In this document: positions 253 through 16,240 of the stretch, piece after piece | How the letters are laid out: the number at the start of each line of letters is the position of its first letter | Numbering within the stretch: the stretch's first letter is position 1 | IMG/VR virus record: IMGVR_UViG_3300035701_006463 | Origin: an uncultured virus (IMG/VR IMGVR_UViG_3300035701_006463) | Taxonomy: Duplodnaviria; Heunggongvirae; Uroviricota; Caudoviricetes | DNA length: 64,000 bases | Reading direction: 5' to 3' (one strand) | The notes under the pieces: model-generated | Database searches by the model: none | Told to the model about the DNA's origin: nothing | The model's input: the letters and a program-made list of their open reading frames with translations, nothing else | Made by a program: the position numbers and the translations under genes

Positions 253-652
253 GTACAGACGTAAGCTCGGGCTAGGTAATCTTCGTGGTGTTCAGACCCC
301 GGCTATACTAATAGCTGTGTTGCTTGTAATTCTGATGTTTTTGATGTATGCGGGTCCTAGGTTCGGTTTCACGGCAGCTATGACGGATACTCTCTTCATG
401 CTCATCCCGTCCATGTTCGGGCTAATTGTATGTGCTTGGGTGGCACGTGAGGCTACGAATCCTGCCTTCGTTGGTGGGGCTGTTATGGGGATAGGGATAA
501 CTGTGTGCTACACTTTATATGCATTGTATGGTGTTGGTGTGTTCACTGATGCTACTTTCCTGCCTGGTACACTACAGGGTACAATGATCTTTTGTATGGT
601 TATATTTTGTTTTTTGGGGGCTGTGGCGGGTGCATTGATGAGACGGAGATGA
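245..652 (+). CDS. Multi-pass membrane protein with possible class III (prepilin-like) leader
   Basis: Basic N-terminus ending NLRG/VQTPAILIAVLL, about 4 hydrophobic helices; ATG at 245. Confidence 0.6.
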   Translation: MVRYRRKLGLGNLRGVQTPAILIAVLLVILMFLMYAGPRFGFTAAMTDTLFMLIPSMFGLIVCAWVAREATNPAFVGGAVMGIGITVCYTLYALYGVGVFTDATFLPGTLQGTMIFCMVIFCFLGAVAGALMRRR

Positions 653-682
653 ATTGTACTGATGTATATGAGGGGATGTAAA

Positions 683-752
683 GAGGAAAGACGATGGAGG
701 AGACTGTAATACGAATTAAAACTATCACCTCTTTTTCTCCTCCCCGTCCCTC
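683..752 (+). ncRNA. BHB-bounded dual-9-nt-spacer hairpin, copy 1
   Basis: GAGG-AAA-GACGATG-GAGGAGA-[CTG TAATACGAA TTAAAA CTA TCACCTCTT TT]-TCTCCTC-C-CCGTC-CCTC, then AAT bulge and 6-bp outer helix (677-682/756-761). Confidence 0.85.
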
Positions 753-806
753 AATTTTATACTCCCTCTCTATAGTAGGTGGAGTGGCAATGGTATTGTT
801 GTTTAG

Positions 807-1202
807 GTGTTGAATTTGGGAAAAAGAAGAGGTTTGACGGCGTCTCAGTATGCGGAGGTGAGAAACAACAAACACGAGCATACAGCGCAAGTATACTTGG
901 ATCCAAAGGTGATAGATGAGGAATATTTGAATCGGTTTTTAGGTAAGGTTTTCTTTTGGTCATTCGGGTTCAATAAAACTGGACCATACACACATTCAAC
1001 AAAATTCAGGGTGTGTACCCACAGGTTCATTCCACAACATAAGTTATCTTCATTAGTTGAAGGAGCATTCCAAAATGGATGTGAGGTCAAGCCTGTGCAG
1101 GGATATAGCTTTCGTCATACATTTGATGTTAAAACAACAACTCCTCTCAGGTGGGATGAGTTTGTATGGAGAATTGTTAAGGCACTAGAAGGGGTGTTGT
1201 AG
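807..1202 (+). CDS. Hypothetical protein
   Basis: 131-aa ORF in operon direction. Confidence 0.6.
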   Translation: MLNLGKRRGLTASQYAEVRNNKHEHTAQVYLDPKVIDEEYLNRFLGKVFFWSFGFNKTGPYTHSTKFRVCTHRFIPQHKLSSLVEGAFQNGCEVKPVQGYSFRHTFDVKTTTPLRWDEFVWRIVKALEGVL

Positions 1203-1336
1203 AATGGGGGGGTTGTTGGATTGGGACACACTGAGGGGAATACTGGTGATGGTTGTGATACTCCTCATATTCTCTGGGCGCGGGTTTCAGATCGTTTCGG
1301 GGTTGTTGAAGAAGGCAGTCAAACGCTATGGAGGAT

Positions 1337-1350
1337 AAAAGTTTATATAT
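1337..1350 (+). promoter_or_regulatory. Archaeal BRE-TATA promoter
   Basis: AAAAGTTTATATAT about 30 nt upstream of ATG 1382. Confidence 0.55.
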
Positions 1351-1381
1351 CCCAAATAATCATAATTATAATGAGAAGTTT

Positions 1382-1474
1382 ATGGATACAATTGAAATTG
1401 TCCTACTTGTCCTCATTGTTATATGTGGTATAGCTTTTGTGACATTGATGAGGTCAAGGAAGAAGGCAAGGTAG
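1382..1474 (+). CDS. Small single-TM protein (30 aa)
   Basis: Translated by hand: MDTIEIVLLVLIVICGIAFVTLMRSRKKAR. Confidence 0.5.
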   Translation: MDTIEIVLLVLIVICGIAFVTLMRSRKKAR

Positions 1475-1612
1475 ATGCCCACCGTATACGTTCCCGACGA
1501 GTTGGTATTCGAGATCGTCAAACTGGGCAAGAATCATAAACAATACATCAAAGAGGCTATCAGGGAAAAACTAGAGCGGGAAGGTGTACTACTAAAACGG
1601 GAGAGCAGGTGA
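1475..1612 (+). CDS. Ribbon-helix-helix DNA-binding protein (45 aa)
   Basis: Translated by hand: MPTVYVPDELVFEIVKLGKNHKQYIKEAIREKLERE, RHH pattern; stop overlaps next start. Confidence 0.7.
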   Translation: MPTVYVPDELVFEIVKLGKNHKQYIKEAIREKLEREGVLLKRESR

Positions 1613-2136
1613 AGATGACAAAAGAAGAGACCGAGCTAGAACAGTCGCGTGCGGAAGTGAACAAACTCAGGTGGGAGCGTAAGGAGTGGGACGAAGAGCG
1701 TGTGGAGCTTCAAGCAGCTATAAGTGATGCAGAGCAACTACTAATAAAGAAAAGTAAAGAGTGGGAAGACGAAAAGAAAGAACTCCAGAAGACTATAAAA
1801 AACAATGTACGTCCTGAGGTGGTTGTGAATGCTGAGTACACGAAAGAGTATTTTCCTAAGGCGTTCTTGTTTCTGTTATCGCTTGTAGACAAGAAGGGTA
1901 GGTTCACCACGCTATATACCAAATGGATGTCGCTGTTCAACTATATGTTTGTGTGTGGGGTCGGTGTCTTTATCAACATGTACGTGCTGCTATCGTTCTC
2001 AAATTTCATGACACTGTGGTTGGCTAACATTGTTGCTATATTCACTGCGTTCCTCTTTAACTGGACGTTTTCTGTTGGACCACTTGGATATCTATTCGGA
2101 CTGTCCCCGAAAATTAAGGTGGAAAAACGAACATGA
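1609..2136 (+). CDS. Coiled-coil plus GtrA-like membrane domain protein
   Basis: C-terminal FNYMFVCGVGVFINMYVL...LANIVAIFTAFLFNW resembles GtrA flippase helices. Confidence 0.65.
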   Translation: MKMTKEETELEQSRAEVNKLRWERKEWDEERVELQAAISDAEQLLIKKSKEWEDEKKELQKTIKNNVRPEVVVNAEYTKEYFPKAFLFLLSLVDKKGRFTTLYTKWMSLFNYMFVCGVGVFINMYVLLSFSNFMTLWLANIVAIFTAFLFNWTFSVGPLGYLFGLSPKIKVEKRT

Positions 2137-2354
2137 GTGAAGAAAATCCTTTCACCGACTTCCCCAAATTCAACGATTGGTTCCTCAGCGAGAAAGCGTT
2201 AAGATGGCGTAGTAAACATGAAGCCGAGATCGTGAACAGTTTGAAACTACTATCGCTGTGGCAATCCGAGTTCCCGGACAAACAACCCTCCGAGGTCAAA
2301 CAGGAGATCGTTGGGCTTAAAGCTAGGATTGAGATTTTGGAGGAAAGAAAATGA
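2133..2354 (+). CDS. Hypothetical protein
   Basis: ATGA-coupled 73-aa ORF. Confidence 0.6.
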   Translation: MSEENPFTDFPKFNDWFLSEKALRWRSKHEAEIVNSLKLLSLWQSEFPDKQPSEVKQEIVGLKARIEILEERK

Positions 2355-2530
2355 GGCTTTATCTTAATGGAAAATGTACTCGAGTTAGGAAAGTGGTTGG
2401 TGAGAGGGATAAGTTTGAGATTATCATAGAGAGCGGGAGCGATGAGCGCACCCTTATTGGACTTGGTGGTGTGGGACTGGAGAAACTTTTTGCACAAATC
2501 GATTATGTGTTGAAGGAGGCGAAAACATGA
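2351..2530 (+). CDS. Hypothetical protein (59 aa)
   Basis: Hand-translated MRLYLNGKCTRVRKVVGERDKFEII..., ATGA overlaps at both ends. Confidence 0.6.
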   Translation: MRLYLNGKCTRVRKVVGERDKFEIIIESGSDERTLIGLGGVGLEKLFAQIDYVLKEAKT

Positions 2531-2910
2531 TCCCAAGACCCAGTGAGGGGGTATTTCAGAGGCTAGTTGAGTATAAGGTGGTCACAGTGAGAAGTAATAA
2601 GTATGTATACTCCCCTGAATTTGAGTCGTCTGTGAGTTATCTCCGGGAACATCCTCCCGGGAAACTCGAGCAAACGCGTATGGGGAGCAAGGTTCGTTCT
2701 GGTGTTATTCCCGCTCTGGTGAAATACGTGGCTCACATTAACAAGAAAAAAGAATATGTAGAGAACGTGATAGTTGCATATGTCTGCTTGGATGCCCACT
2801 TCAAGAGGCTTGGTATGAGCTTTCCAAGTGATCAGTTAGCTGATATTGTTTACGGGACGTTTTATCTCAACGACAATGAGCCGGAGGTAGAGCCCGTGGT
2901 AGGTGAGTAA
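2527..2910 (+). CDS. Hypothetical protein
   Basis: 127-aa coupled ORF. Confidence 0.6.
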   Translation: MIPRPSEGVFQRLVEYKVVTVRSNKYVYSPEFESSVSYLREHPPGKLEQTRMGSKVRSGVIPALVKYVAHINKKKEYVENVIVAYVCLDAHFKRLGMSFPSDQLADIVYGTFYLNDNEPEVEPVVGE

Positions 2911-3574
2911 AATGGATACTGAAGAAGTTTTGGGAGTGGTGTTACATTACTTCTGTTTAATAGCGCCCATGGTGGGTATGGTCTACTCACTGTGTCATGT
3001 GGCTGTGAACGGTATATATGGTTACATCTACTTGCCCGGAATTAGTGCAGCTATCATTCATTCGTGGTCCCTGTTTTGTATACTTGGATTCTTCGGGGTT
3101 ACATATTACATGTTGAGCTACTTAATGCCATTACTGAGGATGATTGTAGCTTTATCCCTTACTATTTTTTCTATTCAAGTATACGACTTCTTGTGGTCGG
3201 CATTCAGCCAAGCCGTCCGAGGTGTTGGATTCTCGTGGGGGGCGTTGGTAGCTAGTTTTATGTTACTGGTCTTATTAGAGCGTATGGACAACAAGCACAA
3301 TTTTATCAGTGTACCTAGACTTTTTACCACAAAACATCTATTCTCGTTGATAGGGATAGCTATCCTGCTTTTATCATTCAAGGGACTGGTGGACACGGGC
3401 TTCTTCCAGGCCATGACCTTGTACGAGCAGGGATTGGGACCAGATCCAAACATAGGTAGCTTCCTATGGGTAGCTAGGAGGCCGGCAGTGTTCTGTGCCC
3501 TCATTCCGTGGTTGAAAATTAAGAAGGGGTTTGTAGCACCGTTACGATTGGATCCGAGGGTGTTGGTTTGGTGA
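2903..3574 (+). CDS. Polytopic membrane protein, paralog family A
   Basis: Motif DTGFFQAMTLYEQGLGPDP shared with 5836..6483. Confidence 0.7.
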   Translation: MSKMDTEEVLGVVLHYFCLIAPMVGMVYSLCHVAVNGIYGYIYLPGISAAIIHSWSLFCILGFFGVTYYMLSYLMPLLRMIVALSLTIFSIQVYDFLWSAFSQAVRGVGFSWGALVASFMLLVLLERMDNKHNFISVPRLFTTKHLFSLIGIAILLLSFKGLVDTGFFQAMTLYEQGLGPDPNIGSFLWVARRPAVFCALIPWLKIKKGFVAPLRLDPRVLVW

Positions 3575-4011
3575 AATTGGTTGTGATTAATCTTGTTGTC
3601 GCTGTTATTTTATTGTTTTCAACAGTTTCGGGTATTAGTGGTACTTTGAATAATATTAGTAAGTACGGGTGGTCTCGTGAGGAAACAGAAATGGTGAACG
3701 GGAAGATTGTTTCAGTTAGTACGGTGTCGTCAGTTACGGAGCTGGTTAGTTGCTGTGTGGTTGGGATGTTTGGATTTGTATTATTAGCAAACATAGGTGC
3801 TTTGTGGCAACAACGGCCCAAGATCGAGTTCGCTGATACAGAGGGTCTCGATGTTGAGTTCCCGAAGGGTAAGCCGAAAGTGTGGGATGTTTGGTATGAT
3901 CCTGTGTTAAAGATAGTGGGGGTCACTGTGAACGAATTTGTGGTGATGTTTCCACTGGGTATGGTATTGAAGTGGGATCAGGGCTGTGTTAGAGGGGAAG
4001 AGGTTGGTTGA
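3568..4011 (+). CDS. Membrane protein, hypothetical
   Basis: Two hydrophobic segments, 147 aa. Confidence 0.55.
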   Translation: MVKLVVINLVVAVILLFSTVSGISGTLNNISKYGWSREETEMVNGKIVSVSTVSSVTELVSCCVVGMFGFVLLANIGALWQQRPKIEFADTEGLDVEFPKGKPKVWDVWYDPVLKIVGVTVNEFVVMFPLGMVLKWDQGCVRGEEVG

Positions 4012-4357
4012 GTCTAGTCTCGTTGAATGTAAGAGCTGTGGTGTTCTGATCCTTAAGGTTAACGCCGAGACACAGGATGGAATGTGTAAGGTATGTTGTA
4101 TCAAGGCTCTCCGTGGTCATATCACAGAACTTGAGGCTAAGCAGTCAGAGTCTTTGGAACAATACATGAAAGAAAAGGAGAGATATTTGGCCCTTGTTGA
4201 GAGTATGACTAAAAGGGCGGATTTTACAGAGGAGAGAATACAAAAGATAGCTAAAATCATTGATAATCTGCCTATGAGGAGTTTGACAGAGAAGATACAG
4301 AAAATTAGAGGTCTTTTGATCGAGGAAGGTGTAGGTAGGTCTGATGGGAATGTTTGA
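3986..4357 (+). CDS. Zn-finger plus coiled-coil protein
   Basis: CKSC...CKVC followed by heptad-like region. Confidence 0.6.
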   Translation: MLEGKRLVESSLVECKSCGVLILKVNAETQDGMCKVCCIKALRGHITELEAKQSESLEQYMKEKERYLALVESMTKRADFTEERIQKIAKIIDNLPMRSLTEKIQKIRGLLIEEGVGRSDGNV

Positions 4358-5108
4358 CTTAACTGGTAGGGCCGATGCAGAGACAATTAAAAAGAGGTAC
4401 CAACGTGAGGTTGATAATGCATACGAAAACGTTACGAACAAGGTCCGTTGGCTCTACGGTATGAATCATAAGTTAAAAAGTGCTATGTCTGATATTGAGC
4501 GGTTAGAAAGGGACATTAAAGCGGGGCAGGACGAAAGAAAAGAACTCTATGAGTCACTTCAAACTTTACTTATGAAAGAAACTAATTTTGAGAAAGAAAT
4601 GTGGAGCACAACCCAACGGGGTAGTAGAGTTACTACCATTAATGTTAAACAAAGATTCACTGATAGTGATGTGGATGAAATCCGATATGATTCAATGCTG
4701 AATTATCTACAAAGATACCCAGAGTATGCATCTAAGTCAAGTTTTAGTAAGATACTGGATAAAATAGTTTCAATAGAGGCAGGTATTAAAAACACAAAAC
4801 AGAATTTTCATGGTGCCATTGCTAGGGCAAAAACGGAAATTTCTTATTTCCCAAGGAATATAATGGAGGCAAAAAATACAATCAAAACTTACAACAGGAT
4901 TTTAAAAGAAGGTGTGGAAAAATTAGAAAGTATGCGTTATAAAAGGAGCATTTTCTTCAGGCTGTCCAGTGAGTCGAATAAATTGAAAGTTATGCTTGAT
5001 GTACTTCCACACAAGGTTAATGAAAATGAGGATACAATTAATAGAATAGAAGAGGAAGTAAAACTTGCTGAGAGTAGGTTTAGTTATAATGAAGGGTCTA
5101 AAATATGA
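4344..5108 (+). CDS. LemA-like coiled-coil protein
   Basis: RYPEYASKSSFSKILDKIVSIEAGIKNTKQNF...ISYFPRNI resembles the LemA C-terminal motif. Confidence 0.6.
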   Translation: MGMFDLTGRADAETIKKRYQREVDNAYENVTNKVRWLYGMNHKLKSAMSDIERLERDIKAGQDERKELYESLQTLLMKETNFEKEMWSTTQRGSRVTTINVKQRFTDSDVDEIRYDSMLNYLQRYPEYASKSSFSKILDKIVSIEAGIKNTKQNFHGAIARAKTEISYFPRNIMEAKNTIKTYNRILKEGVEKLESMRYKRSIFFRLSSESNKLKVMLDVLPHKVNENEDTINRIEEEVKLAESRFSYNEGSKI

Positions 5109-5335
5109 GCATGAACGGGGATGTACAGAAAATGCCTATTGAGATGGCACAGATACAAAAAAGGCTTGAAGAATTACAGGAAATGCAAAGAAATGAATTA
5201 GCAAAAAGAAATAAAGTATGTCCTCAATGTGGTGGAACGGGAACAATGGTTATTGTGACACGTTCGATCCTGTTTCCTACAAAGATTAAGATTGTGATTT
5301 GTGATAGGTGCAAGGGATGGCGAATGATCGAGTGA
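5105..5335 (+). CDS. DnaJ-type Zn-finger protein
   Basis: CPQCGGTG...CDRCKG. Confidence 0.65.
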   Translation: MSMNGDVQKMPIEMAQIQKRLEELQEMQRNELAKRNKVCPQCGGTGTMVIVTRSILFPTKIKIVICDRCKGWRMIE

Positions 5336-5366
5336 ATGCCAGCATGTGGATGTGAAGGAATAAGTA

Positions 5367-5801
5367 ATGCTGGTACTTGAAACAGTCAGGGAGTGGAAGG
5401 GGGTCAAGGTCACCCTATATCCCGTGTCGTGGATACATGATTCAGCTATCATCGGTGAGGAAACAAAAACCGGGGCGTTTGTCGACATCAGTGAGAACGT
5501 GGTGATAGGCAAGGGGAACAACATACAAAGCCATATCACCATCCCGAGTGGCAGCAAAATTGGTGATGGTAACTTTTTTGGACCAGCGTGTCATCTACTA
5601 AACGACAAGTTTATTAACAGCGTTCTACAAGCTCCTGTGGTGGGCAACCACAATAGGATTGGTGGGTCTGTTTTAGTTCTGCCGGGTGTTAAAATTGGGG
5701 ATAATTGCTTTATCGGAGCTGGGGCAATGATAACACGAGACGTTCCTAGTGGTACAGAGATCCTTCCGGGAAAGGGAAAGAAGGAGCGTATTGTATGGTG
5801 A
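5367..5801 (+). CDS. Hexapeptide-repeat sugar N-acetyltransferase (WbpD-like)
   Basis: Left-handed beta-helix repeats, VLPGVKIGDNCFIGAGAMITRDVP. Confidence 0.85.
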   Translation: MLVLETVREWKGVKVTLYPVSWIHDSAIIGEETKTGAFVDISENVVIGKGNNIQSHITIPSGSKIGDGNFFGPACHLLNDKFINSVLQAPVVGNHNRIGGSVLVLPGVKIGDNCFIGAGAMITRDVPSGTEILPGKGKKERIVW

Positions 5802-5807
5802 GAAATC

Positions 5808-5845
5808 TTGGAAAGGTGGTCGAGGAGGCTAACATTTGCATAAAG
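5808..5845 (+). ncRNA. Truncated 5' half of the dual-spacer hairpin
   Basis: TTGG-AAA-GGTGG-TC-GAGGAGG-CTA-ACATTTGCA-TAAAG; 3' arm absent. Confidence 0.7.
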
Positions 5846-6483
5846 AGCGTTTGATTGGGTATATTGGAGATATATACATAAGTGCCGTGTTAGCCCTACT
5901 GGCCATTAGTGTAGTATCGTTTGTGCTTTTTCCATTCGGTGATTTGATTTTCAATGTGGGTGGAATTTGGTTGAGTAGTGTGACAGTTATAACATTTACA
6001 TTATCTATTGCTGTGTTGTACTACATTTATAAGGAAATGGATGTATTTCCTAGGATAATGTGTTCCTTGGTACTACCTATATTCGGTATATCATTTCACG
6101 AGGCGTGGTGGCACGTCGGAAGTTGGTATACTTGGGGTATGGGTTTTCCTATATTCTGGATCTCGTATTCGGTGGCACTTTTTTTGGTAGCAATTATACT
6201 TCACATGAGATGTGGCTCTCTAAAATTCACCATGCCTAGGTTGGTATTCATATTGGTTTGTTTGTTGGGGTACAGGGTGGGATGGCAGTATCTTATGGAC
6301 ACGGGCATGTTCCCGGCACTATTATTGTACGAGCAGGGACGAGGGCCGAACCCACAAGGACTTGTCCTCTATCTGAATGCTAGCTTAGGTAGAATGGTGT
6401 GGTTGCTACTGGCTAACTGCCAGAAAGGAGAGTGGTCAATCTTCAAAATGTTAGGTATTCTGAAGGGGGTGGTGGTGAAATGA
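5836..6483 (+). CDS. Polytopic membrane protein, paralog family A
   Basis: DTGMFPALLLYEQGRGPNP motif; start codon uncertain. Confidence 0.7.
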   Translation: MHKERLIGYIGDIYISAVLALLAISVVSFVLFPFGDLIFNVGGIWLSSVTVITFTLSIAVLYYIYKEMDVFPRIMCSLVLPIFGISFHEAWWHVGSWYTWGMGFPIFWISYSVALFLVAIILHMRCGSLKFTMPRLVFILVCLLGYRVGWQYLMDTGMFPALLLYEQGRGPNPQGLVLYLNASLGRMVWLLLANCQKGEWSIFKMLGILKGVVVK

Positions 6484-7109
6484 GCTTTGTTACAGCTGTT
6501 AAGAAGTTTTACATTGACTCCGATTACTACGATTATGATGATGTTGCTACTCATTTCGTCGGGCCCGAAACGTTTTTCCATAGGAGTAGAAGGAATGCAG
6601 TGTTGAGCGTAATTAAAAAGTTCTCCACTGGGTCACCGTACATGGACGCTGGTTGTGGTACGGGACTGATCCTTCGGTACTTGCCGGCAAATTCAATTGG
6701 CGTGGACATCAGCCCTCTTCATCTCAAACGGACGAGGGAGAAGCTGCCTGAGACTATGTTGATAATGGCTGATATTGAGAACCTGCCAATTAGGAAGGGA
6801 TCGTGTTCCACGGTAGTTTGTACTGAAACGTTGGAGCACCTGCCGTCGCCTAGAAGGGCAGTGGAGCAGATTAGATATGTGTTACGAAAAGCTGGCGTTT
6901 TCATAGGGTCTATTCCACATCGGTTCTTTCTCTGGTATTTCAAGTTTCTTAGTTTTACATGCGATCATACTGTGCCGTTTCATAGGGAGTATAGTGTTAG
7001 AGAGGTTAGAAATTTGTTGAGAGAGTTTGACATCATGATGATTAAGCCATGTGCGCTAATGTTAACTGTGGTATTCGCCGCACGGTTTAATGGAGGTAGA
7101 GTATGTTAA
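6480..7109 (+). CDS. Class I SAM-dependent methyltransferase
   Basis: MDAGCGTG, VCTETLEHLP; ATGA-coupled start. Confidence 0.9.
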   Translation: MSFVTAVKKFYIDSDYYDYDDVATHFVGPETFFHRSRRNAVLSVIKKFSTGSPYMDAGCGTGLILRYLPANSIGVDISPLHLKRTREKLPETMLIMADIENLPIRKGSCSTVVCTETLEHLPSPRRAVEQIRYVLRKAGVFIGSIPHRFFLWYFKFLSFTCDHTVPFHREYSVREVRNLLREFDIMMIKPCALMLTVVFAARFNGGRVC

Positions 7110-7121
7110 GAGACAGTTGCA

Positions 7122-7191
7122 CTGGAAAGGTGTTTGATGGGACTAAAGTCCACGTTAAAACTAGAAATCCATTTTCCTTTCAGCACCCCAG
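7122..7191 (+). ncRNA. BHB/BHL-bounded dual-9-nt-spacer hairpin, copy 2
   Basis: CTGG-AAA-GGTGT-T-TGATGGGA-[CTA AAGTCCACG TTAAAA CTA GAAATCCAT TT]-TCCTTTCA-GCACC-CCAG, then AAA. Confidence 0.85.
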
Positions 7192-7209
7192 AAAGCAGGA
7201 TGTGAAAGA

Positions 7210-8313
7210 ATGAGGATAGGTATAGCAGCCCCGAATTTGGGTGAAAAAGAGCTGGAATATGTAACTGATGCTGTAAAATCCACCTGGATTTCGTCCAAGG
7301 GGAAATATGTGAAAGGCTTCGAGGACAAATTTGCTGAATACATAGGTACAAAATACGCCTACACGGTCTGTAATGGTACGGCTGCCCTCCACTTGGCTAT
7401 GCTAGCTTGTGGTGTTGGTCCGGGTGATGAGGTTATCATGCCGGCAACAACCATGATAGCCTGTGCAAATGTTGTAAAGTACTGTGGTGGAAAGCCAGTC
7501 TTCGTAGACATCGAGGAGGACACGTGGTGTATAGACCCAGCCGATATTGTTAATAAGATAACCAAGAACACTGTGGCTATAATGCCTGTACACCTTTATG
7601 GGCACCCGGCCGATATGAGCCCTATACTGGGGATAGCCGAAGAGTATAGACTCCATGTGATCGAAGATGCCGCTGAAGCTCATGGTGCAGAGTATCGGGG
7701 TAAGAAAGTGGGTGGGATTGGTGATGTAGGATGTTTCAGCTTCTATGGAAATAAAATTCTCGCAACGGGCGAGGGAGGAATGGTCACCACTGACGACGAT
7801 GATCTAGCCAAGAAACTTGATAGTCTGAGAAACCAAGCCTACGACCCTGATAAAAGAGACAAACTCATACACAGTGGCATAGGATACAACTATCGTCTCA
7901 CGAATGTACAATGTGCCCTCGGATTGGCACAGTTGGAGAGGATCGATGAGTTCATAAAAATACACCGGGACAACGCTGACAGATACAACAGGGGCTTGGG
8001 AAAGGGATTGATTCTTCCACCAGAAAAGAGTTGGGCTAAGAACGTTTATTGGATGTACACTACTGTGCTGGATGTTGAATCGCCTGTTGTGAGAGATATG
8101 TTAATGGAGAAGCTCAAATCTGTTGGTGTGGAGACCAGAGCTGTGTTTCCTGCTATTTATCATCAACCACCATACAAGGACTCCTCTTCATGGTGTACAG
8201 TGGCTGATTGGTTCGGAGACAGGGGGCTGAATCTTCCGTCTGGTAACAGTACTACATTTGAAGAGGTGGACTATGTGATTGAGAAGATTAAAGAGTTCCT
8301 TGAGGTGGAGTGA
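7210..8313 (+). CDS. DegT/DnrJ/EryC1/StrS sugar aminotransferase
   Basis: NGTAALHLA, IEDAAEAHGA, FSFYGNKILATGEGGM, GYNYRL. Confidence 0.95.
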   Translation: MRIGIAAPNLGEKELEYVTDAVKSTWISSKGKYVKGFEDKFAEYIGTKYAYTVCNGTAALHLAMLACGVGPGDEVIMPATTMIACANVVKYCGGKPVFVDIEEDTWCIDPADIVNKITKNTVAIMPVHLYGHPADMSPILGIAEEYRLHVIEDAAEAHGAEYRGKKVGGIGDVGCFSFYGNKILATGEGGMVTTDDDDLAKKLDSLRNQAYDPDKRDKLIHSGIGYNYRLTNVQCALGLAQLERIDEFIKIHRDNADRYNRGLGKGLILPPEKSWAKNVYWMYTTVLDVESPVVRDMLMEKLKSVGVETRAVFPAIYHQPPYKDSSSWCTVADWFGDRGLNLPSGNSTTFEEVDYVIEKIKEFLEVE

Positions 8314-8314
8314 C

Positions 8315-9310
8315 ATGCTGAATTTTAGCGTTGTGGGATGTGGTAGGATGGGTAGACGTCGAGCCACGGCTATAACCGAAAACCCGAATGCCCGTCTGGT
8401 TTGTGTTTCCGATTCTGATGAAGTTTTAGGTAAGAAATTAGCCGCGGATCTTCATACAGAGTTCTATCTTGAGAATGAGTTAGCCCTAACGAGACCGGAT
8501 GTTGATGTTGTTGTGATTTCTACACCAAACTCGTACCACTCACCAATGGCTATCGAGGCAATGAAGAGTGGTAAACACGTATTCTGTGAGAAACCTATGG
8601 CAACAACGGCTGATGCTGCTAGGGAAATGGTAAGAGTATCCAAGAAGACTGGTACACTACTAAAGGTGAGTTCAAACATACGTTACTTCGGCAATGTTAA
8701 GAAAGCGAGGGAGTTAGTTCTTTCGGAGCTCATAGGAGATGTATTATTTATGCGTTCCTGGATCGGTCACGAGGGGTGGAATCTCAAGCCGGGTACATGG
8801 TTTGTCGATCCTAACACCATAGGTGGAGGGACTCTAATAGATAACGGATGTCATTTAATTGACATCGTGCGGTGGTACTTCGGGGATGTAGATGAGGTTT
8901 TTGGTTACACGAGCAATTTGTATCGTAAGCTTCCGGGGTTGGAGGATAACGCTGTGGCTGTGTTGGTTACCCGTGGAGGTAAGCCCGCCGTTATTCAATC
9001 ATCATGGACTGAGTGGAATGGATACTTGTATATAGAAATTTACGGTGCAAAGGGTTCGGTGACCATTGATAGTCGTGGTGACGCCGCAAAGACTATTGTT
9101 AGGATGACAGGACATGACGAGGTCTACGACTATGCACGGGAACCACGAGATTCGTTTAAGCGTGAGATTGATGATTTCATAACATGTGTAGGTCGTGGCG
9201 AGAACCTGCCTCCAACGGGGTACGACGGTATGAGAGTGGCAGAAATTATCGACGGTATATACAGGTCGGCGAAAGAGGGTAAGAGAGTATCTGTTGTATC
9301 GGAAGTGTAA
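8315..9310 (+). CDS. Gfo/Idh/MocA oxidoreductase (WbpB-like)
   Basis: VVGCGRMG, GKHVFCEKP, GGTLIDNGCHLID. Confidence 0.92.
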   Translation: MLNFSVVGCGRMGRRRATAITENPNARLVCVSDSDEVLGKKLAADLHTEFYLENELALTRPDVDVVVISTPNSYHSPMAIEAMKSGKHVFCEKPMATTADAAREMVRVSKKTGTLLKVSSNIRYFGNVKKARELVLSELIGDVLFMRSWIGHEGWNLKPGTWFVDPNTIGGGTLIDNGCHLIDIVRWYFGDVDEVFGYTSNLYRKLPGLEDNAVAVLVTRGGKPAVIQSSWTEWNGYLYIEIYGAKGSVTIDSRGDAAKTIVRMTGHDEVYDYAREPRDSFKREIDDFITCVGRGENLPPTGYDGMRVAEIIDGIYRSAKEGKRVSVVSEV

Positions 9311-9312
9311 GA

Positions 9313-9924
9313 TTGGTAGATGTGTTCGGTAGTGTCTGGGTATTACACCACGAGATACATCTACTCTCCTTGCTGTTTTCTATCATAGTTTTTGCCTACT
9401 TTTTTGTTACCACGAAGGAGTCCCTTATTATTCGAGTCTTATCAGCCGCTTTATTTATGTTTGCGGGTAACTTGTTATGCGAAGTGCCATGGATACTTGG
9501 TTACTACCTCCATGTGGGTGGGCTCGTTTTAGCCCTCGATGTGATTGAGTTCATGCTCGGCGAAATTTTCATACTTTATATTTTTGATAACTTGAGGAGG
9601 AAGGGGTTAAAACTTCCTCGGGTAGATATGAAGAAATGGTTGGTCGTTTTCACGATTGCTTGGGTATCCGTGGCTCTATTGGATAGGCACGGTTTTTACC
9701 CACTTTGGATCGGTTATCTGAATGGGACAGTGTTGGTTGACCCTCACACCGTGTATCCGTTTAATTTGGACTGGTCCATTGGTAAAGCTATCGGCATGTT
9801 GGGTTGGGTATGGATTGCTAGAAGTGAGAAGACTGGAAAGACGGCCGAGGAGGCTGATGTTGGGGTGAAACCTACAAAGCCAATCCCTCCTCCCCGTCCC
9901 AGAATTCAAGGTGAAGAGCTATGA
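9313..9924 (+). CDS. Polytopic membrane protein, distant family A; 3' end contains hairpin copy 3
   Basis: DRHGFYPLWIGYLNG...DPH aligns loosely with the family A motif. Confidence 0.65.
   Translation: MVDVFGSVWVLHHEIHLLSLLFSIIVFAYFFVTTKESLIIRVLSAALFMFAGNLLCEVPWILGYYLHVGGLVLALDVIEFMLGEIFILYIFDNLRRKGLKLPRVDMKKWLVVFTIAWVSVALLDRHGFYPLWIGYLNGTVLVDPHTVYPFNLDWSIGKAIGMLGWVWIARSEKTGKTAEEADVGVKPTKPIPPPRPRIQGEEL
9833..9902 (+). ncRNA. BHB-bounded dual-9-nt-spacer hairpin, copy 3
   Basis: CTGG-AAA-GACGG-CC-GAGGAGG-[CTG ATGTTGGGG TGAAAC CTA CAAAGCCAA TC]-CCTCCTC-C-CCGTC-CCAG, then AAT bulge. Confidence 0.88.
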
Positions 9925-10682
9925 GCGAACAGTTCGGTAGGGTCTATGCAAAGTGTTACGATGTATTGTACGGTGACAAAAACTACAATGACGAGTGTGA
10001 TTTAATCGAAAAGATACTTTCCCAGTATGGTCGGGGTACGGACACCACCATACTGGACATTGGATGTGGTACGGGTGGTCACATGATTCCTCTACTCAAG
10101 GCAGGGTACGATGTGGTTGGTGTTGATCCATCACGCTATATGATAGACGAGGCGGTTAAAAAGGATGCTAGCCTTGTTTCCAGAATTAATGTGGGGAGAC
10201 TTCAAGACTTCAAGTTACGTGGTAGGTTCGAGGCAATAATATGCATGTTCTCTGTGATAAACTACGTGACCGAAACAGATGAGCTAATAAAATCACTCAT
10301 GAACGTTAGGCATCATTTAGCGCGCGGTGGATTGTTCATATTCGATTTCTGGTACGGTCCGGCTGTGATGACCATAAAGCCGGACGCTAGGATTAAAAGT
10401 GTTGAGCACAACGGACTTGTTATTGAGAGGATTGTAGTCCCGGAGTGGGACATCTTTAGCCACATTATTCGGTCTCACTATTATTTACGTGTGATTAAGG
10501 GAGACCATATTGAGGAGGAGGTCAGTGAAACACACACTCTCCGTTACTTTTTCCCACAAGAAGTAATTTGGTGTTTGGGGCAAACTGGGTTCGAGTTAGT
10601 AAAATTCTCGTCCTTCACGGACTTAGATCACCCACCATCCGTTAACGAGTGGGACGCATTGGTGGTAGCGAGGGCGGTTTAA
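9921..10682 (+). CDS. Class I SAM-dependent methyltransferase (sugar MTase-like)
   Basis: YDVLYGDKNY, ILDIGCGTGGH, GGLFIFDFWYG. Confidence 0.9.
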   Translation: MSEQFGRVYAKCYDVLYGDKNYNDECDLIEKILSQYGRGTDTTILDIGCGTGGHMIPLLKAGYDVVGVDPSRYMIDEAVKKDASLVSRINVGRLQDFKLRGRFEAIICMFSVINYVTETDELIKSLMNVRHHLARGGLFIFDFWYGPAVMTIKPDARIKSVEHNGLVIERIVVPEWDIFSHIIRSHYYLRVIKGDHIEEEVSETHTLRYFFPQEVIWCLGQTGFELVKFSSFTDLDHPPSVNEWDALVVARAV

Positions 10683-10683
10683 A

Positions 10684-11340
10684 GTGCTGGCCGTGGTTGT
10701 TCCAGTCCGTGACGAGCCCAAGCTAGGCGAATTTCTCCTCCGGTTACATGAGATACTTGAGACCATTCCCGATCAATACATGGTTTTTGTTGTTGAGGGG
10801 GACAGGGAGAAGTTGTATCCTGATATTCCGGGACTCCCACATCAAAGGGTAGTAAAAACTCACGGGGATAGTTTGGAGAGGAGTATCCTCACTGGATTTA
10901 CCTGCTCAAAATGTGTGGGAGTTGAGAACATAGTGGTCTGCGATGCTGATGAAACCCATCCGACGGAGATTATCCCACGTATGGTCAAGTTGTTGAGTGA
11001 GTACGAGATGGTGGTGGCGTCCCGGTACATTCCTGGAGGAAAATCTGATCTCGGTCCATTCCGTAACTTCGTTTCGTGGTGTTTTGTTAACTGGGCGCGG
11101 TTATTCGGATCAAATTTGACAGATCCTATGGCTGGATTCTTTGCTGTTAGATCGAGCATTGTGGAGAAAGTAAAATTCAAGCCCTTTACTTGGAAAACAT
11201 GCCTTGAAATAGAATTGAAGGCTAGGCCCAGCATCACGGAGATTCCAATCGTGGCAAAAAAGAGGGAAAAGGGCTTATCCAAAGCTAAAGCTATGACGGG
11301 GTTGAGGATACTGTGGGATATATTATCGCACATTTGGTAG
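10684..11340 (+). CDS. GT2 glycosyltransferase, Dol-P-Man synthase-like
   Basis: VVCDADETHP, VVASRYIPGG, TDPMAGFFA. Confidence 0.85.
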   Translation: MLAVVVPVRDEPKLGEFLLRLHEILETIPDQYMVFVVEGDREKLYPDIPGLPHQRVVKTHGDSLERSILTGFTCSKCVGVENIVVCDADETHPTEIIPRMVKLLSEYEMVVASRYIPGGKSDLGPFRNFVSWCFVNWARLFGSNLTDPMAGFFAVRSSIVEKVKFKPFTWKTCLEIELKARPSITEIPIVAKKREKGLSKAKAMTGLRILWDILSHIW

Positions 11341-11364
11341 TGGCTCACATGGAGGCGAAGAGAA

Positions 11365-11613
11365 ATGAGTGACAAAACATCCACCCTTGACAAGATCATC
11401 GCCCTCCTCAACCGCCCGATCAATAAAAACGAACTCAAAACCCTCAAAGACATGGTCCTACTGGCAACGGAGTGTGATGAAGTCCGCAGATACCACCTCA
11501 GACTCAACTTCTTTGTCCAAGTTATCACCACCATCCTGAGCTTCACAGTGATATACCTACTGGGCAAGCTACTAATAGAGTACATCTATGGAGGTAGGCT
11601 CCCATATGTTTAG
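11365..11613 (+). CDS. Small membrane protein
   Basis: 82 aa, C-terminal TM. Confidence 0.55.
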   Translation: MSDKTSTLDKIIALLNRPINKNELKTLKDMVLLATECDEVRRYHLRLNFFVQVITTILSFTVIYLLGKLLIEYIYGGRLPYV

Positions 11614-12388
11614 AGAGGCGCTCTCCGGAATCCTGACTGCACTTACCACAGAGACTAACCTACAATATCACATCGTGATTGCCTTCTCCGTCCTCCTCAC
11701 AGCCCGTCAACTCAATGTCACCTTCACTGAACTGATAATCCTTGTCTTGGTCATCTCCATGGTCATTAGTGCAGAGCTATTCAACACCTCCCTAGAACGC
11801 CTCTGTGACAAGGTCCAGCCCCAACAGGACACCCTCATCCGTGACATAAAGGACATCTCTGCTGGAGCTGTACTAATCATCGTGATAATGTCCATAGTTG
11901 TTGGAACAGTAGTATTCTACCCACATATTTCAAATACAGCAAAAACGAGTGACGAATTACAAATAATCGACAGCGTAGCCTACAAGATAACTATAAATGG
12001 CATTCCAATAAAACAACTAGTATGGAAATCCGTAGAATTTGTTGGTGGTGCAAGTCCCTATCCTTGGGACCTGTGGAGGTCAAAAGGAATCATCAGGTAC
12101 TACTTTATTGAGGACTTGTCCAGTGATAGGGCGGACAACTACAGAGATACTATAATTGGAATTAGCCTGTTGTACCCAACTAATAGTGAGGGTAATAGAG
12201 ACTACCTAACCGGAAAAATCATAGGACAACCTTATGTACTCAACGCCTGCATTTATGTTACTGTGGAGGGTTCATCACCTAAAGTTGTAAGGTACGAAAA
12301 TAAAACAATTGTTGATTATGATTACATTCGTGATTTTGGTGGTGTTGGTTTGGGTTATGCTTATGGGTTACTGTATGTGGAGGTATGA
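11606..12388 (+). CDS. DgkA-family (undecaprenol/diacylglycerol) kinase fused to an unknown C-terminal domain
   Basis: ETNLQYH, SAELFNTSLERLCD, IKDISAGAVL. Confidence 0.85.
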   Translation: MFREALSGILTALTTETNLQYHIVIAFSVLLTARQLNVTFTELIILVLVISMVISAELFNTSLERLCDKVQPQQDTLIRDIKDISAGAVLIIVIMSIVVGTVVFYPHISNTAKTSDELQIIDSVAYKITINGIPIKQLVWKSVEFVGGASPYPWDLWRSKGIIRYYFIEDLSSDRADNYRDTIIGISLLYPTNSEGNRDYLTGKIIGQPYVLNACIYVTVEGSSPKVVRYENKTIVDYDYIRDFGGVGLGYAYGLLYVEV

Positions 12389-12477
12389 GTATTTTAACGG
12401 ATTTTATTAAATCACAGGGAAATGAGGATGATATAATGTTGGTGAGGGCTGGTACAAATTGGTAGGAGAGTGTTAAA

Positions 12478-12639
12478 ATGAAAGGACAACGTTCATGTGC
12501 AGCCTGTGGTGAAGCTGTCCACAGAGGTGAGGGCATCTACTTCGCCGGCTGGCTCATCCACAAGACGTGTAAGGGTAGGGCGATCCTCATGCACCAAACC
12601 GGAGAACGTCCAACATGGGGCGGTAAGCACAAATGGTGA
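12478..12639 (+). CDS. Small Zn-finger protein (53 aa)
   Basis: Hand-translated CAACGEAV...IHKTC. Confidence 0.6.
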   Translation: MKGQRSCAACGEAVHRGEGIYFAGWLIHKTCKGRAILMHQTGERPTWGGKHKW

Positions 12640-13493
12640 CATACGCAGTCCTCATCCCAACACACAACGAGTATAACTATATCTCCTCCTGTCTACAACA
12701 CGTCTTACAACTCCAACCACCTCCCTCCCTCATCCTAGTAGTTGATGATAACTCAACCGATAATACAGTAGGCATAGTCCGTTCTCATCCTTCTGTACGA
12801 CTCCTCTCCCTCCATTACCCCCGTCACCCCACGCGCGGCATCAACCTCTGCTGGGTTATGAACGCCGCGCTTATCAAGATACATCGTCTCCTTCCGTCCT
12901 TCCAGTACCTACTCAAGGTAGACGCAGATTCTCTCACCCCTCCGGACTACTTCTCCAAGCTCAAACAACTACTCGATGCCAACCCACAACTAGGTATTGT
13001 TTCCGGCGTCCCCTCATCTCAACACGTCTCACCACGTCAGGCATCTGACGGAGCAAAACTCTACCGGCGAGCGTGTCTTGATTCCATTACACCTTTCACA
13101 CCTATGCATGGCTTCGACTCGTTTGCTATCCAACAGGCACATTATCAAGGGTGGGAGGTAGATTCCTACCAGTCCGTACAATACCAACAACTCCGTCCGT
13201 TCGGACCTAGAGACTTAATGGGGTGGTTCCTCATGGGGCAAAATCATTTCCTCACAGGATACACCCTCCCGTATATGTTCGCCCTTGTACCTATCCTCTT
13301 CCTAGACCACCCCTACGTACTAGGCAGTCTCGTCATGTTGCTATCCTACTTGGTACTTGAGCTTACCAAGACGAGATTATCAGGCATGGACAATTACTAT
13401 AGGTTTATGTGTCATTACAGTGGTGCGGTTATAACAGAATTTGTGAGTAATAGAATTGGAAGAGGTTCTCCTAAGGAGGCGTGGTTGGGTTGA
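12633..13493 (+). CDS. GT2 glycosyltransferase
   Basis: LIPTHNE, VVDDNSTDNT, KVDAD. Confidence 0.9.
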   Translation: MVTYAVLIPTHNEYNYISSCLQHVLQLQPPPSLILVVDDNSTDNTVGIVRSHPSVRLLSLHYPRHPTRGINLCWVMNAALIKIHRLLPSFQYLLKVDADSLTPPDYFSKLKQLLDANPQLGIVSGVPSSQHVSPRQASDGAKLYRRACLDSITPFTPMHGFDSFAIQQAHYQGWEVDSYQSVQYQQLRPFGPRDLMGWFLMGQNHFLTGYTLPYMFALVPILFLDHPYVLGSLVMLLSYLVLELTKTRLSGMDNYYRFMCHYSGAVITEFVSNRIGRGSPKEAWLG

Positions 13494-13918
13494 ATAGGTT
13501 ACATGGTTTTGTTATTTTTAGCATCCTTATCGGTGCTATAGGTGTCACTCTAATTGCTGAGTACAGGCTGTCTGGTACCGGACGTGTAGCTGCTGTGGGT
13601 CTTCAGGTTTACTCTGGCGTGGATTGTAGTAACCTAATAACGTCTGTAGACTGGGGAATCATCTACCCTGGTGGCAGTATCAATCGTGTAGTTTATGTGA
13701 AAAATACGGGCAATGTTGCTGTTGTTCTTTCTCTGGTCGTACAGAGTTGGGTCCCCATCACAGCACCACAGTACATATCCGTGACGTGGGATGCTGAAGG
13801 TAAAGTGTTGGATGCTGGGAAGACGATGGCTGTTAGTTTAATATGCTCCATATCTACAGAGATCACAGGAATAAATTCTTTCAGTAATGTTATTGTAATG
13901 AAGGGGGTCAGTAAGTGA
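13481..13918 (+). CDS. Secreted Ig/pilin-like protein of a type common in Bathyarchaeia
   Basis: N-terminal TM, then VDWGIIYPG...VKNTGNV...YISVTWD...ITGINSFS; recalled family resemblance. Confidence 0.6.
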   Translation: MVGLNRLHGFVIFSILIGAIGVTLIAEYRLSGTGRVAAVGLQVYSGVDCSNLITSVDWGIIYPGGSINRVVYVKNTGNVAVVLSLVVQSWVPITAPQYISVTWDAEGKVLDAGKTMAVSLICSISTEITGINSFSNVIVMKGVSK

Positions 13919-13942
13919 TGAGAAAAACAGGCGGTTTTTGGT

Positions 13943-13970
13943 CCATAAGTTTATCAATAATAAAATATTA
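13943..13970 (+). promoter_or_regulatory. Class 1 promoter variant
   Basis: CCATAAGTTTATCAATAATAAAA. Confidence 0.6.
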
Positions 13971-13999
13971 TATATTATCGGGAGGGACGGGTAGGTAGG

Positions 14000-14290
14000 A
14001 TGGACAACACAGCACTGGGTGGGGTCATAGTTATAGCCTTAATCTTCATCGTGTATTACATCACGTACATGATCGAGGCAAAAGGCAAGGAAAAGCTCGT
14101 CGATCAGGATGTGCGTAAAAACATGATCGACATGGAGCTGGAGAAGGTCCGTATACAACGCGAAGAGCTAGAGCTCAAGAAGGGTATACTCGCGTACGAG
14201 ACCAAGAAACTGGGTCACAACACCATACGGGCAGAGCATGTCGAGTACAAAGTCCTAGAAGACAAGAAGGACAGAGAGAGGAAAAAGTAA
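14000..14290 (+). CDS. Single-TM coiled-coil protein
   Basis: 96 aa, N-terminal TM. Confidence 0.6.
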   Translation: MDNTALGGVIVIALIFIVYYITYMIEAKGKEKLVDQDVRKNMIDMELEKVRIQREELELKKGILAYETKKLGHNTIRAEHVEYKVLEDKKDRERKK

Positions 14291-14314
14291 CCAATAAATT
14301 TATAAATAATAAAA
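14288..14314 (+). promoter_or_regulatory. Class 1 promoter, identical 27-bp repeat copy 1
   Basis: TAACCAATAAATTTATAAATAATAAAA, identical at 33086 and 36230. Confidence 0.85.
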
Positions 14315-14330
14315 TCTATTATACCATTGA

Positions 14331-14717
14331 GTGGTAATCGAGATGTCGGTTATAGAGCCCAAGGTGGTCTACAAACTCAAGTTCTACGAGAAGGAGAGAG
14401 AACTATTCCCGACGGAATTCAACTTGAAGATCAGCCAGCACGACGTTATCAAGATTGGCAGGAAACTCTCCCGGCATTTTAAGTTCACAGAGCCCGATTT
14501 TTACTTTAGGGGTAGTGTTGACTCTGGCACAGCTATGCTCAGTAGCACCCCGCGGCTGATTAGGCTAGGTATGGACCCATCGTGGGGCATGTTTCTCCAC
14601 GAGTTGAGTCACGTTTACAACAAAGAAAAGTACAACAATTCCCACCACAACAAGCGGCTCATGAAGACTCTAAAACGGTTTATTTTGTATTGTCAAAAGA
14701 AGGATTTTTGGGGTTGA
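14331..14717 (+). CDS. HExxH zinc metallopeptidase-like protein
   Basis: FLHELSHV...HH motif. Confidence 0.7.
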   Translation: MVIEMSVIEPKVVYKLKFYEKERELFPTEFNLKISQHDVIKIGRKLSRHFKFTEPDFYFRGSVDSGTAMLSSTPRLIRLGMDPSWGMFLHELSHVYNKEKYNNSHHNKRLMKTLKRFILYCQKKDFWG

Positions 14718-14721
14718 TTGA

Positions 14722-14892
14722 ATGAAAGCCCAAATATTCTGTTCTTATTGTGGTGTTCTATGTACTTCAGAAGAAAAGGAAGTAACGAGAAATCTCTTCG
14801 ATAAAAATAGGTATCACATAAATATGACTTGTTGGTCTTGTAAGAAGATATTACCAGAAATAACAATTGATCTAGAGGAAGCTGAGGGTTAA
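14722..14892 (+). CDS. Small Zn-finger protein (56 aa)
   Basis: Hand-translated CSYC...CWSC; stop overlaps next ATG. Confidence 0.6.
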   Translation: MKAQIFCSYCGVLCTSEEKEVTRNLFDKNRYHINMTCWSCKKILPEITIDLEEAEG

Positions 14893-15407
14893 TGGATATA
14901 AATGATACTCTCGTGGGGTTGGTTATATTCGGGCTTATAGGTGGGTTGGTGGTAACGGGGGTTAGTTACTACAGATTTACTAACGATACTATCACGGTCA
15001 AGGAGAAATACAATTACGTCGAGGTGCATTCCAGCGGTGATAGTAGTTACTCTAATTTAGAGTTTGTGTTGGTTGATATTCAGGGGAGGACTTTCGCTGT
15101 TGGTTATCCATTCTGGATGATATTCACCAGTAATAAAGCTCTGTACGGTCAGGTAACCGTCGGGGTTACTTACAAGGTGACGTACTTCGGTTGGCGTATT
15201 GAGTGGTTGGGTTTATTCCCCAGTATTGGTTGGTTAGAGCCTGTGGTTAGCAAAACTATTACAGAAGTTGAACCAACAACGTCGTATATATATGTCACAG
15301 CTACTAATAGGACAGTAGTGGGTTTTGGTTACAAGCCATTTTATACGTGGTTAGGTGAGTACTATATTCATCCGGGTGAGAACGGAACAATATGGATTAG
15401 TAGGTGA
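14892..15407 (+). CDS. Secreted or membrane-anchored beta-rich protein
   Basis: N-terminal TM; YKVTYFGWRIEWLGLFPSI. Confidence 0.6.
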   Translation: MDINDTLVGLVIFGLIGGLVVTGVSYYRFTNDTITVKEKYNYVEVHSSGDSSYSNLEFVLVDIQGRTFAVGYPFWMIFTSNKALYGQVTVGVTYKVTYFGWRIEWLGLFPSIGWLEPVVSKTITEVEPTTSYIYVTATNRTVVGFGYKPFYTWLGEYYIHPGENGTIWISR

Positions 15408-15468
15408 GATAAGTGGGTGTTATAATAATCTTGTTGGGGTGGTTAGAGCCTGAGGGAGGTACGTAGGG

Positions 15469-15924: not shown

Positions 15925-16240
15925 AGAGGCTTATAAACCTTTGAAGGGTGAAGGAGAACAGAAAATGATGATCAAGACGAGACGGACCTGTGATATTTGT
16001 GGTAGACCTGCTGATTATTGCCAATCGTTTGTCTTGAATAACGCCAGAAGAAACCCAGCCTCGAAGGGATTCGGTAAAGATGATCTGTCTTGGTGTTCCG
16101 ATGCAGAGGCTTTTTTCTGTGAGGAGCATAAGGATAGGGGGTGGCAACGTAACTACATGGAGGGTTACGAGTCGTGTTCAAAGTTCCCTTTGGATAAGTT
16201 CCCTCACATGGGTCTATACTGGAAGGAGGTAAAGGCGTGA
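15911..16240 (+). CDS. Zn-finger protein
   Basis: CDICG...FCEEH. Confidence 0.6.
   Translation: MRMGEEAYKPLKGEGEQKMMIKTRRTCDICGRPADYCQSFVLNNARRNPASKGFGKDDLSWCSDAEAFFCEEHKDRGWQRNYMEGYESCSKFPLDKFPHMGLYWKEVKA

Follow-up and report, generated by a model that had tools for sequence, protein, structure and literature searches.

A stretch of 64,000 nucleotides, the whole of which is called the window here, carries five full copies, four on the plus strand and one on the minus strand, of an element of about 84 nt, and comparison of these copies with relatives in sediment DNA gives good support to the conclusion that they represent a new structured RNA family. The elements would serve as structured leaders, each placed after the stop codon of a gene and ahead of the ribosome-binding site of the gene that follows, and the reading favoured here, at a probability of about 0.4, is that EndA of the archaeal host recognises and cuts a bulge-helix-bulge (BHB)-like site at their base. 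The cleavage, ligation and circularisation, and any role of the released RNA, we infer from structure, geometry and genomic setting. The principal rivals are a leader that works without EndA, a DNA-level repeat and a guide RNA, each of which is weighed below against the evidence that bears on it.

The replicon and its host

The window appears to come from a virus, plasmid or other mobile replicon of a Bathyarchaeia-like archaeon, a host assignment that rests on the similarity of one gene, NrdD, whose product is 70-74% identical to those of Bathyarchaeia metagenome-assembled genomes. Scanning of 86 window ORFs (29 + 57) against Pfam identified homologues of the small (56268-57251, 214 bits) and large (40405-41343, 103 bits) RFC subunits, divergent and both below the curated cut-offs; together with NrdD they agree with the archaeal setting assumed in the preliminary description of this DNA. 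Other genes encode a DUF3987 protein, a ParB-like protein of 766 aa, PD-(D/E)XK nucleases, QueC-like, QueD and radical-SAM proteins, and three DNA methylase ORFs are present, as are two long blocks of genes for glycosyl-, methyl- and aminotransferases; nothing in the window was recognised as a capsid protein or a terminase. EndA (PF01974) scored above the cut-off in all three Bathyarchaeia genomes searched, two of which encode two paralogues, and the enzyme of the host lineage is probably of the two-subunit, broad-specificity type. According to the available text of PMC7714728, the broad-specificity (alpha-beta)2 EndA of the TACK group accepts relaxed sites.

Copies of the element in the window

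A covariance model was built from four of the window copies and scored against the whole window, in which the five copies reached 71.8-90.2 bits and the next-best match 10.9 bits; the fifth copy was recovered at 71.8 bits by the model from the other four. The copies and one remnant are listed below, with P1 denoting the basal helix, AAA the bulge on its 5' strand and 3' the three bases that follow it.

Copy 1 (c1): 678-761, or 670..768 with outer pairs, plus strand, 90.2 bits; strict BHB shape; P1 683-686/749-752; AAA 687-689; inner hairpin 690-748; 3' AAT 753-755; outer helix of 6 bp at 677-682/756-761, to which the minimum-free-energy fold adds pairs at about 670-676/763-768
Copy 2 (c2): 7117-7200, plus strand, 87.9 bits; P1 7122-7125/7188-7191; AAA 7126-7128; 3' AAA 7192-7194
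Copy 3 (c3): 9828-9911, plus strand, 88.6 bits; P1 9833-9836/9899-9902; AAA 9837-9839; 3' AAT 9903-9905
Copy 4 (c4): 17198-17280, plus strand, 78.1 bits; P1 17203-17206/17268-17271; AAA 17207-17209; 3' AAG 17272-17274
Copy 5 (c5): 54887-54970, minus strand, 71.8 bits; P1 54962-54965/54896-54899; AAA 54959-54961; 3' AGT 54893-54895
5' remnant: 5808-5832, plus strand; TTGG, AAA and the 5' stem strand through GAGGAGGCT; 3' half absent

Copy 2 lies 12 nt past the stop codon at 7109 and 19 nt ahead of the ATG at 7210, which opens a gene for a DegT-type aminotransferase, while copy 3 lies within the 3' end of ORF 9313-9924, with the ATG of a methyltransferase gene (9921) 19 nt downstream. Copy 4 is placed upstream of ORF 17281/17291-18195, and copy 5 follows the stop of a PD-(D/E)XK nuclease gene (54975-55739) at a distance of 9 nt and precedes a glutaredoxin-NrdD pair (54603-54875 and 52429-54606) by about 20 nt. 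In the remnant, GAGGAGG (5822-5828) stands 7 nt ahead of the TTG start at 5836 and is probably the ribosome-binding site of ORF 5836-6483. As a side observation, ORFs 807-1202, 2903-3574 and 5836-6483 share the direct repeats D1 and D14, which suggests that they are paralogues, and a copy or the remnant precedes two of them, namely 807-1202 and 5836-6483.

A structured RNA family with relatives in sediment

Rfam 15 gave no match at gathering scores anywhere in the window, and a search of positions 600-18000 at E-values up to 5 returned two chance-level matches only, both away from the element. Relatives were sought in metagenomes by one exact-pattern scan of public contigs, a scan that misses diverged copies and that yielded 99 stretches. 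Among these, 4 of the 80 loci scored with model R1 (L122-L201) contained five further copies at 46.7-70.7 bits, and the other 19 loci (L202-L220, model R2) reached 16.4 bits at best. The further copies lie on short sediment contigs: L131 has two (L131a and L131b), and L128, L139 and L188 have one each. L131 is syntenic with positions 227-1300 of the window and L131a is the orthologue of copy 1; L128 is the orthologue of copy 5, and L188 that of the remnant locus.

In the alignment of all ten copies, 94.7% of cells are paired and compensatory changes, with both sides altered, occur in 12 of the 17 pairs. The observed covariation was matched by none of 500 shuffles, and pairing fell to 53-65% when the partners were slid by 1-3 columns. 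Compensation on this scale is unexpected for transposase-bound terminal repeats, and so weighs against the reading of the element as a DNA-level repeat lacking an RNA function, either a spreading or recombining palindrome (MITE-, REP- or attC-like) or simply a site of module shuffling. That all ten copies are co-oriented with the flanking ORFs speaks against it as well. Wobble pairs do not decide the strand, G-U cells (5) barely exceeding A-C and C-A cells (3), which leaves some room for a DNA-level palindrome.

Searches of other collections returned little. A loose pattern in IMG/VR gave 120 stretches, and the model, applied to 80 of the loci, found no true match among them (best 19.7 bits); a stricter pattern gave a single locus, at 26.4 bits, whose basal helix is broken. 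Protein queries of IMG/VR with the PD-(D/E)XK nuclease and the RFC small subunit found no relatives, and INPHARED phages contained no match to the DUF3987 protein or to copy 3. On the chromosomal side, the element was found in none of 47 Bathyarchaeia nrdD loci, a model search of five Bathyarchaeia genomes gave no match, and a sequence-pattern scan of 401 genomes matched six, all of them chance-like. Among 151 Bathyarchaeia genomes, one held a weak look-alike at 27.8 bits (L301), which could be a distant chromosomal relative or a product of chance. In this look-alike, which is intergenic at 1501-1597 on the minus strand of its contig, the helix is CUGG/CCAG and both the bulge and the 3' triplet read AAA, the stem measures 8 bp and the loop is longer.

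Gain, loss and divergence of copies

Copies differ in presence between related contigs, and this polymorphism is one ground for a DNA-level repeat. The L131b copy is absent from the window through an indel of 113 nt; on L188, a full copy at 280-363 stands directly upstream of the remnant, where the window lacks those 79 nt; and the region of copy 4 is replaced by 82 letters in one sediment run. The 5' edges of copies coincide with several of the joints in related contigs. Neither the 113-nt nor the 79-nt indel is a clean insertion of element size, both including extra sequence, no target duplication was seen, and no integrase or transposase family was matched among the scanned window ORFs, all of which tells against a spreading element. 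AttC-type R'' and R' boxes appear to be absent from the element, and its stems covary where conserved terminal repeats would be expected of such DNA. A DNA-level repeat would thus cover the indels and leave the covariation and the orientation uncovered, and this reading is considered quite unlikely.

Sequence change at the element is also uneven. The window and L131 have almost the same sequence in the genes on either side of copy 1, and are about 60-70% identical in the element and its immediate flanks (430-600); a divergence so much greater than that of the neighbouring genes, which is again compatible with a DNA-level repeat, suggests rapid change or replacement by another copy.

Two further rearrangements were noted alongside. 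At L131 960-1100, compared with window positions ~1195-1205, the extra 113 nt comprise L131b and a second, diverged 3' end of the upstream 131-aa gene, so that in L131 the gene ends …NALKDCL* before L131b and …QALGKVL* after it, and in the window only …KALEGVL* is found. Separately, window positions 5110-5345 (236 nt, with ORF 5105-5335 for a CXXC zinc-finger-like protein of 76 aa) are replaced in three sediment runs by 17 letters that include GGAAAGG, the 5' motif of the element.

Conserved anatomy

The basal helix P1, of 4 bp, is present in all ten copies with every cell paired, and three of its four pairs show double changes, the variants being CUGG/CCAG, GAGG/CCUC, CCGG/CCGG, UUGG/CCAA and CCAG/CUGG. 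On its 5' strand it is followed by a bulge that reads AAA in 10/10 copies, and the G-C pairs adjoining the bulge are likewise invariant. The inner stem consists of 13 pairs (93% of cells paired), of which the lower part covaries and the upper part is nearly always GAGGAGG/CCUCCUC. It is capped by a loop of 32-33 nt that is hypervariable except for the motif CUR...AAANCUR...UUU. On the 3' side of P1, the first base is A and the second A or G in every copy, and the base 5' of P1 varies (A, A, A, C, U, A, U, U, C, U). Taken as a whole, the conservation is two-fold symmetric, as would be expected for a dimeric enzyme.

The predicted cuts would release 66 nt in eight of the ten copies and 65 and 67 nt in the others. 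For window copies 1-5 the predicted lengths are 66, 66, 66, 65 and 66 nt, in agreement with the spacing of 65-66 nt given in the preliminary description. Despite this near-constant length, orthologous loops are identical at only 15/33 and 20/33 positions.

Position and linkage to downstream genes

Nine of the ten copies fall in the gap between a stop codon and the start that follows, copy 3 being the only one that is read through. In most copies the stop precedes the basal helix by 4-30 nt. The start follows after 17-27 nt, with an SD in the interval, in c2, c3, c4, c5, L128 and L139, and at a greater distance in c1, L131a, L131b and L188. So fixed a spacing is one of the grounds for the closest rival of EndA cleavage, namely a structured intercistronic leader independent of this enzyme, either read by a viral or host RNA-binding protein (possibly dimeric) or by another nuclease, or acting itself on mRNA stability or translation. 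The SD-like GAGGAGG strand and the anti-SD-like CCUCCUC strand could be part of such a function, and the GAGGAGG of the remnant, at its distance of 7 nt from TTG, can serve as a ribosome-binding site. Two other candidates were rejected on inspection by eye: a promoter in or beside the element, a TATA-like run being present only in c1, and a small ORF in the loop, starts after GAGGAGG being present only in some copies and at varying distances.

ORF 9313-9924 is a conserved membrane-protein gene without a stop of its own, which runs through copy 3 to a TGA that overlaps the next ATG, so that roughly its last 29 residues are encoded by the element; its homologues P0002-P0004 end at the start of the element and are about 30 residues shorter. 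Excision of 66 nt would keep the frame but leave the tail still 7 residues longer than in the homologues, so that the normal end would not be restored.

In related contigs of sediment DNA, ORF 9313-9924 is absent and copy 3 follows directly on the preceding gene (joint 9318->9832), and in another related contig the remnant, at 5809, is linked directly to 9291. Homology therefore picks up again at the element's 5' edge, meaning that the element travels with the downstream gene, and both rearrangements (joints 9318->9832 and 9291->5809) count in favour of a leader. The preliminary description had proposed that splicing explains why the elements are tolerated inside operons. This explanation is unnecessary: nine of ten copies are intergenic, excision would not give copy 3 a normal end, and leaders tied to the downstream gene need no splicing in order to be tolerated.

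Is the base a bulge-helix-bulge?

The part of the motif called HBh', that is, a 4-bp helix, a 3-nt 5' bulge and an inner helix, is present in all ten copies, and the strand order of h, H (4 bp), 3-nt bulge and h' on both strands corresponds to the correct orientation of a BHB. The orientation was checked against two tRNA introns of the host lineage and against the available text of PMC4090602, in which the central helix is formed by pairing of the first anticodon bases with the intron. Both tRNA introns were read by hand, as two of five intron-containing tRNAs for which ARAGORN reported no introns. One (L335) has a helix CUUC/GGAG with bulges GGA and AAA, the other (L330) a helix CUUU/GGAG with bulges UAA and ACA, and both appear to be canonical BHBs with A-rich bulges.

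The outer helix is the weak point of the motif. In the strict register, with no base skipped on the 5' side and three on the 3' side, outer pairing across the ten copies amounts to 6, 2, 0, 2, 0, 2, 0, 1, 3 and 3 bp. It thus reaches at least 2 bp in six of ten copies, as against 13% of mismatched flank pairs (binomial ~1e-3), in a sample of ten copies from about eight independent loci, a set too small to establish covariation of this helix firmly. Enrichment in the registers (0,2) and (1,3) is about equal to that in the strict one, and in nine of ten copies the helix measures only 0-3 bp. A strong, strict hBHBh' shape is confined to copy 1, and even here the orthologue L131a replaces the 6+6-bp outer helix by 2 bp in the strict register, its minimum-free-energy fold giving a 2x2 loop plus 4 bp instead. 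A U before P1, present in four of ten copies, can pair with the invariant A after P1, and RNAfold accordingly draws c5, L128, L139 and L131b with a 5-bp helix and no 3-nt bulge. A bulge at the three bases 3' of P1 therefore presupposes an outer helix, and this helix is weak in 9/10 copies. The second (3') splice site would be properly flanked in only some of the copies, and the motif is best read as a strict BHB once and as a relaxed BHB otherwise.

The features described beforehand for the five window copies are borne out. The 4-bp helix, the 5' AAA bulge and the 3' triplets AAT, AAA, AAT, AAG and AGT are all in the sequence, and so is the outer helix of copy 1; copies 3 and 4 have the short strict outer helices reported for them (2 bp each), and copies 2 and 5 the relaxed 1x3 loops. 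In copy 2 the loop leads, with one unpaired 5' base, to an outer helix of 4 bp, and in copy 5, where pairing is possible as a 1x3 loop only, to one of 2 bp. The broader claim that every hairpin is closed by a BHB stands in part: the HBh' half, the geometry and the orientation agree with it, and the outer helix, weak in general and lost in the orthologue of copy 1, makes the hBH half less secure.

Proposed processing by host EndA and the competing leader

In the mechanism favoured here, the base of each element would present a 4-bp helix followed on each strand by unpaired A-rich bases (AAA on one, A-R-N on the other), closed on the inner side by the long stem and on the outer side by a weak and variable helix. 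Host EndA would recognise this BHB-like site within the polycistronic transcript and cut after the second base of each bulge, at the predicted junctions 688/755, 7127/7194, 9838/9905, 17208/17274 and 54960/54893. A 66-nt hairpin RNA would be released, which RtcB could circularise, and the downstream cistron, its leader now shortened, would be either religated or left as a separate fragment with a 5'-OH. In role, the sites would correspond in archaea to those that RNase III cuts between the genes of phage T7. Contigs of four sediment DNA runs showed no precise loss of 65-66 nt at the predicted sites, as expected for DNA. EndA is favoured on account of the symmetric geometry of 4 bp and unpaired A-A, the constant predicted length of the excised RNA, the presence of the enzyme in the host lineage, and the precedent of a leader in Haloferax.

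The intergenic position of the elements argues against EndA, as nothing there would require their removal. Moreover, we know of no need on the part of EndA for specific bulge bases. The invariant AAA, the adjoining G-C pairs, the near-invariant GAGGAGG/CCUCCUC above a covarying stem and the loop motifs exceed what EndA would need and point to another or an additional reader, which is again in keeping with a leader independent of the enzyme. Several observations count against such a leader: no candidate RNA-binding protein was recognised by Pfam among the 86 window ORFs, no K-turn is present and the pairs after the bulge are Watson-Crick, the loops have no alternative pairing to their own flanks, and the exact combination of 4 bp and 3 nt with a symmetric 3' A-A would be left unexplained. 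Compared with EndA cleavage, the leader without EndA is thus better on sequence conservation and worse on geometry, and it is regarded as a serious contender, if short of an even chance.

A more elaborate form of the EndA reading would make the elements a mobile family of sequence-related BHB mini-introns in leaders, from which host EndA and RtcB would generate abundant 66-nt circles together with trimmed leaders, in an operon processing akin to that by RNase III in phage T7, the circles having a function of their own tied to the SD/anti-SD-like stem. If so, the elements would be the first intron family of BHB type on an archaeal mobile element. On the present evidence this fuller scheme appears unlikely.

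Do the hairpins act as guides?

The preliminary description had labelled the excised hairpins as guides. Such guides could be C/D-, H/ACA-, crRNA- or omega-RNA-like RNAs whose variable loops would pair with targets. The loops are hypervariable yet constant in length (32-33 nt), as such a role would have it, and the loop motif (A/U)UGAAA(G/C) of some copies presumably resembles the 3' end of many CRISPR repeats. C/D and H/ACA guides are marked by a C box (RUGAUGA) and a D box (CUGA) with a K-turn containing tandem G.A pairs, or by an ACA box 3' of the lower stem. In the element, C and D boxes do not occur at conserved positions, the 3' triplets (AAU, AAA, AAG, AGU) include no ACA box, and sheared G.A pairs are not present beside the bulge, which adjoins G-C and A-U or G-C pairs; Rfam, as noted above, returned no match for the element. 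The longest complement of a loop within the 64-kb window is 10-12 nt, which is the chance level, so that no complement of at least 13 nt exists there, and the duplex energies of loops with their own flanks equal those with the flanks of other copies. No protein that uses guides was recognised in the window. The label is therefore dropped, and a guide function is regarded as highly improbable.

Significance

The available text of PMC7714728 documents only two archaeal EndA substrates outside tRNA and rRNA, namely cbf5 and the HVO_1309 leader. If the EndA reading is true, viruses or plasmids would recruit the tRNA-splicing machinery of the host to process messages or to make small circular RNAs. 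The elements would also supply a compact natural set of substrates for the broad-specificity, TACK-related EndA, with one strict copy and several relaxed ones. Even without EndA, they constitute a new, well-supported family of structured RNAs from a host lineage that has hardly been studied, one that is tied to the shuffling of gene modules in related genomes.

Comparison with known systems

In phage T7, related hairpins with an internal loop lie between the cistrons of polycistronic mRNAs and are cut by RNase III, the rRNA-processing nuclease of the host. The likeness to the present elements is an analogy of role only, the domain of life, the enzyme and the structure all being different. An intron in the cbf5 pre-mRNA of Crenarchaeota was reportedly described by Watanabe in 2002.

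This cbf5 intron is of the EndA type (Yokobori, 2009, PMC2738675; cited in PMC7714728) and, in the available text, offers a precedent for such an intron in the transcript of a protein gene in a TACK archaeon. It interrupts a coding frame and has to be removed, whereas the present elements are intergenic, save for copy 3, which overlaps the tail of an ORF. Closer in geometry are the relaxed tRNA introns of Crenarchaeota and the TACK group, in which hBH and HBh' are independent forms of the splice site (Marck and Grosjean, 2003, via PMC4090602). As in those introns, one bulge of the present elements is properly flanked and the other looser, and the two-subunit EndA is described as accepting such sites. 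Those relaxed sites belong to tRNA precursors, and the ones proposed here to mRNA leaders between genes; the present elements also have an invariant bulge sequence, which tRNA introns are not known to require.

The closest parallel is the BHB intron in the 5' UTR of HVO_1309 of Haloferax volcanii, which EndA cuts in vitro and which is found as a circle (Schwarz et al., 2020, PMC7714728). Both are short BHB-closed elements in an mRNA leader, of 46 nt in Haloferax and 66 nt here, and the available text proposes that excision of the former alters expression of the downstream gene. The HVO_1309 intron, as presented there, is a single chromosomal locus of a euryarchaeon established by circRNA-seq and in vitro cleavage, whereas the present elements are known from sequence alone. 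Unlike that intron as so presented, they form a related family, with five copies in 64 kb of a mobile replicon, a Bathyarchaeia-like host and a relaxed second site.
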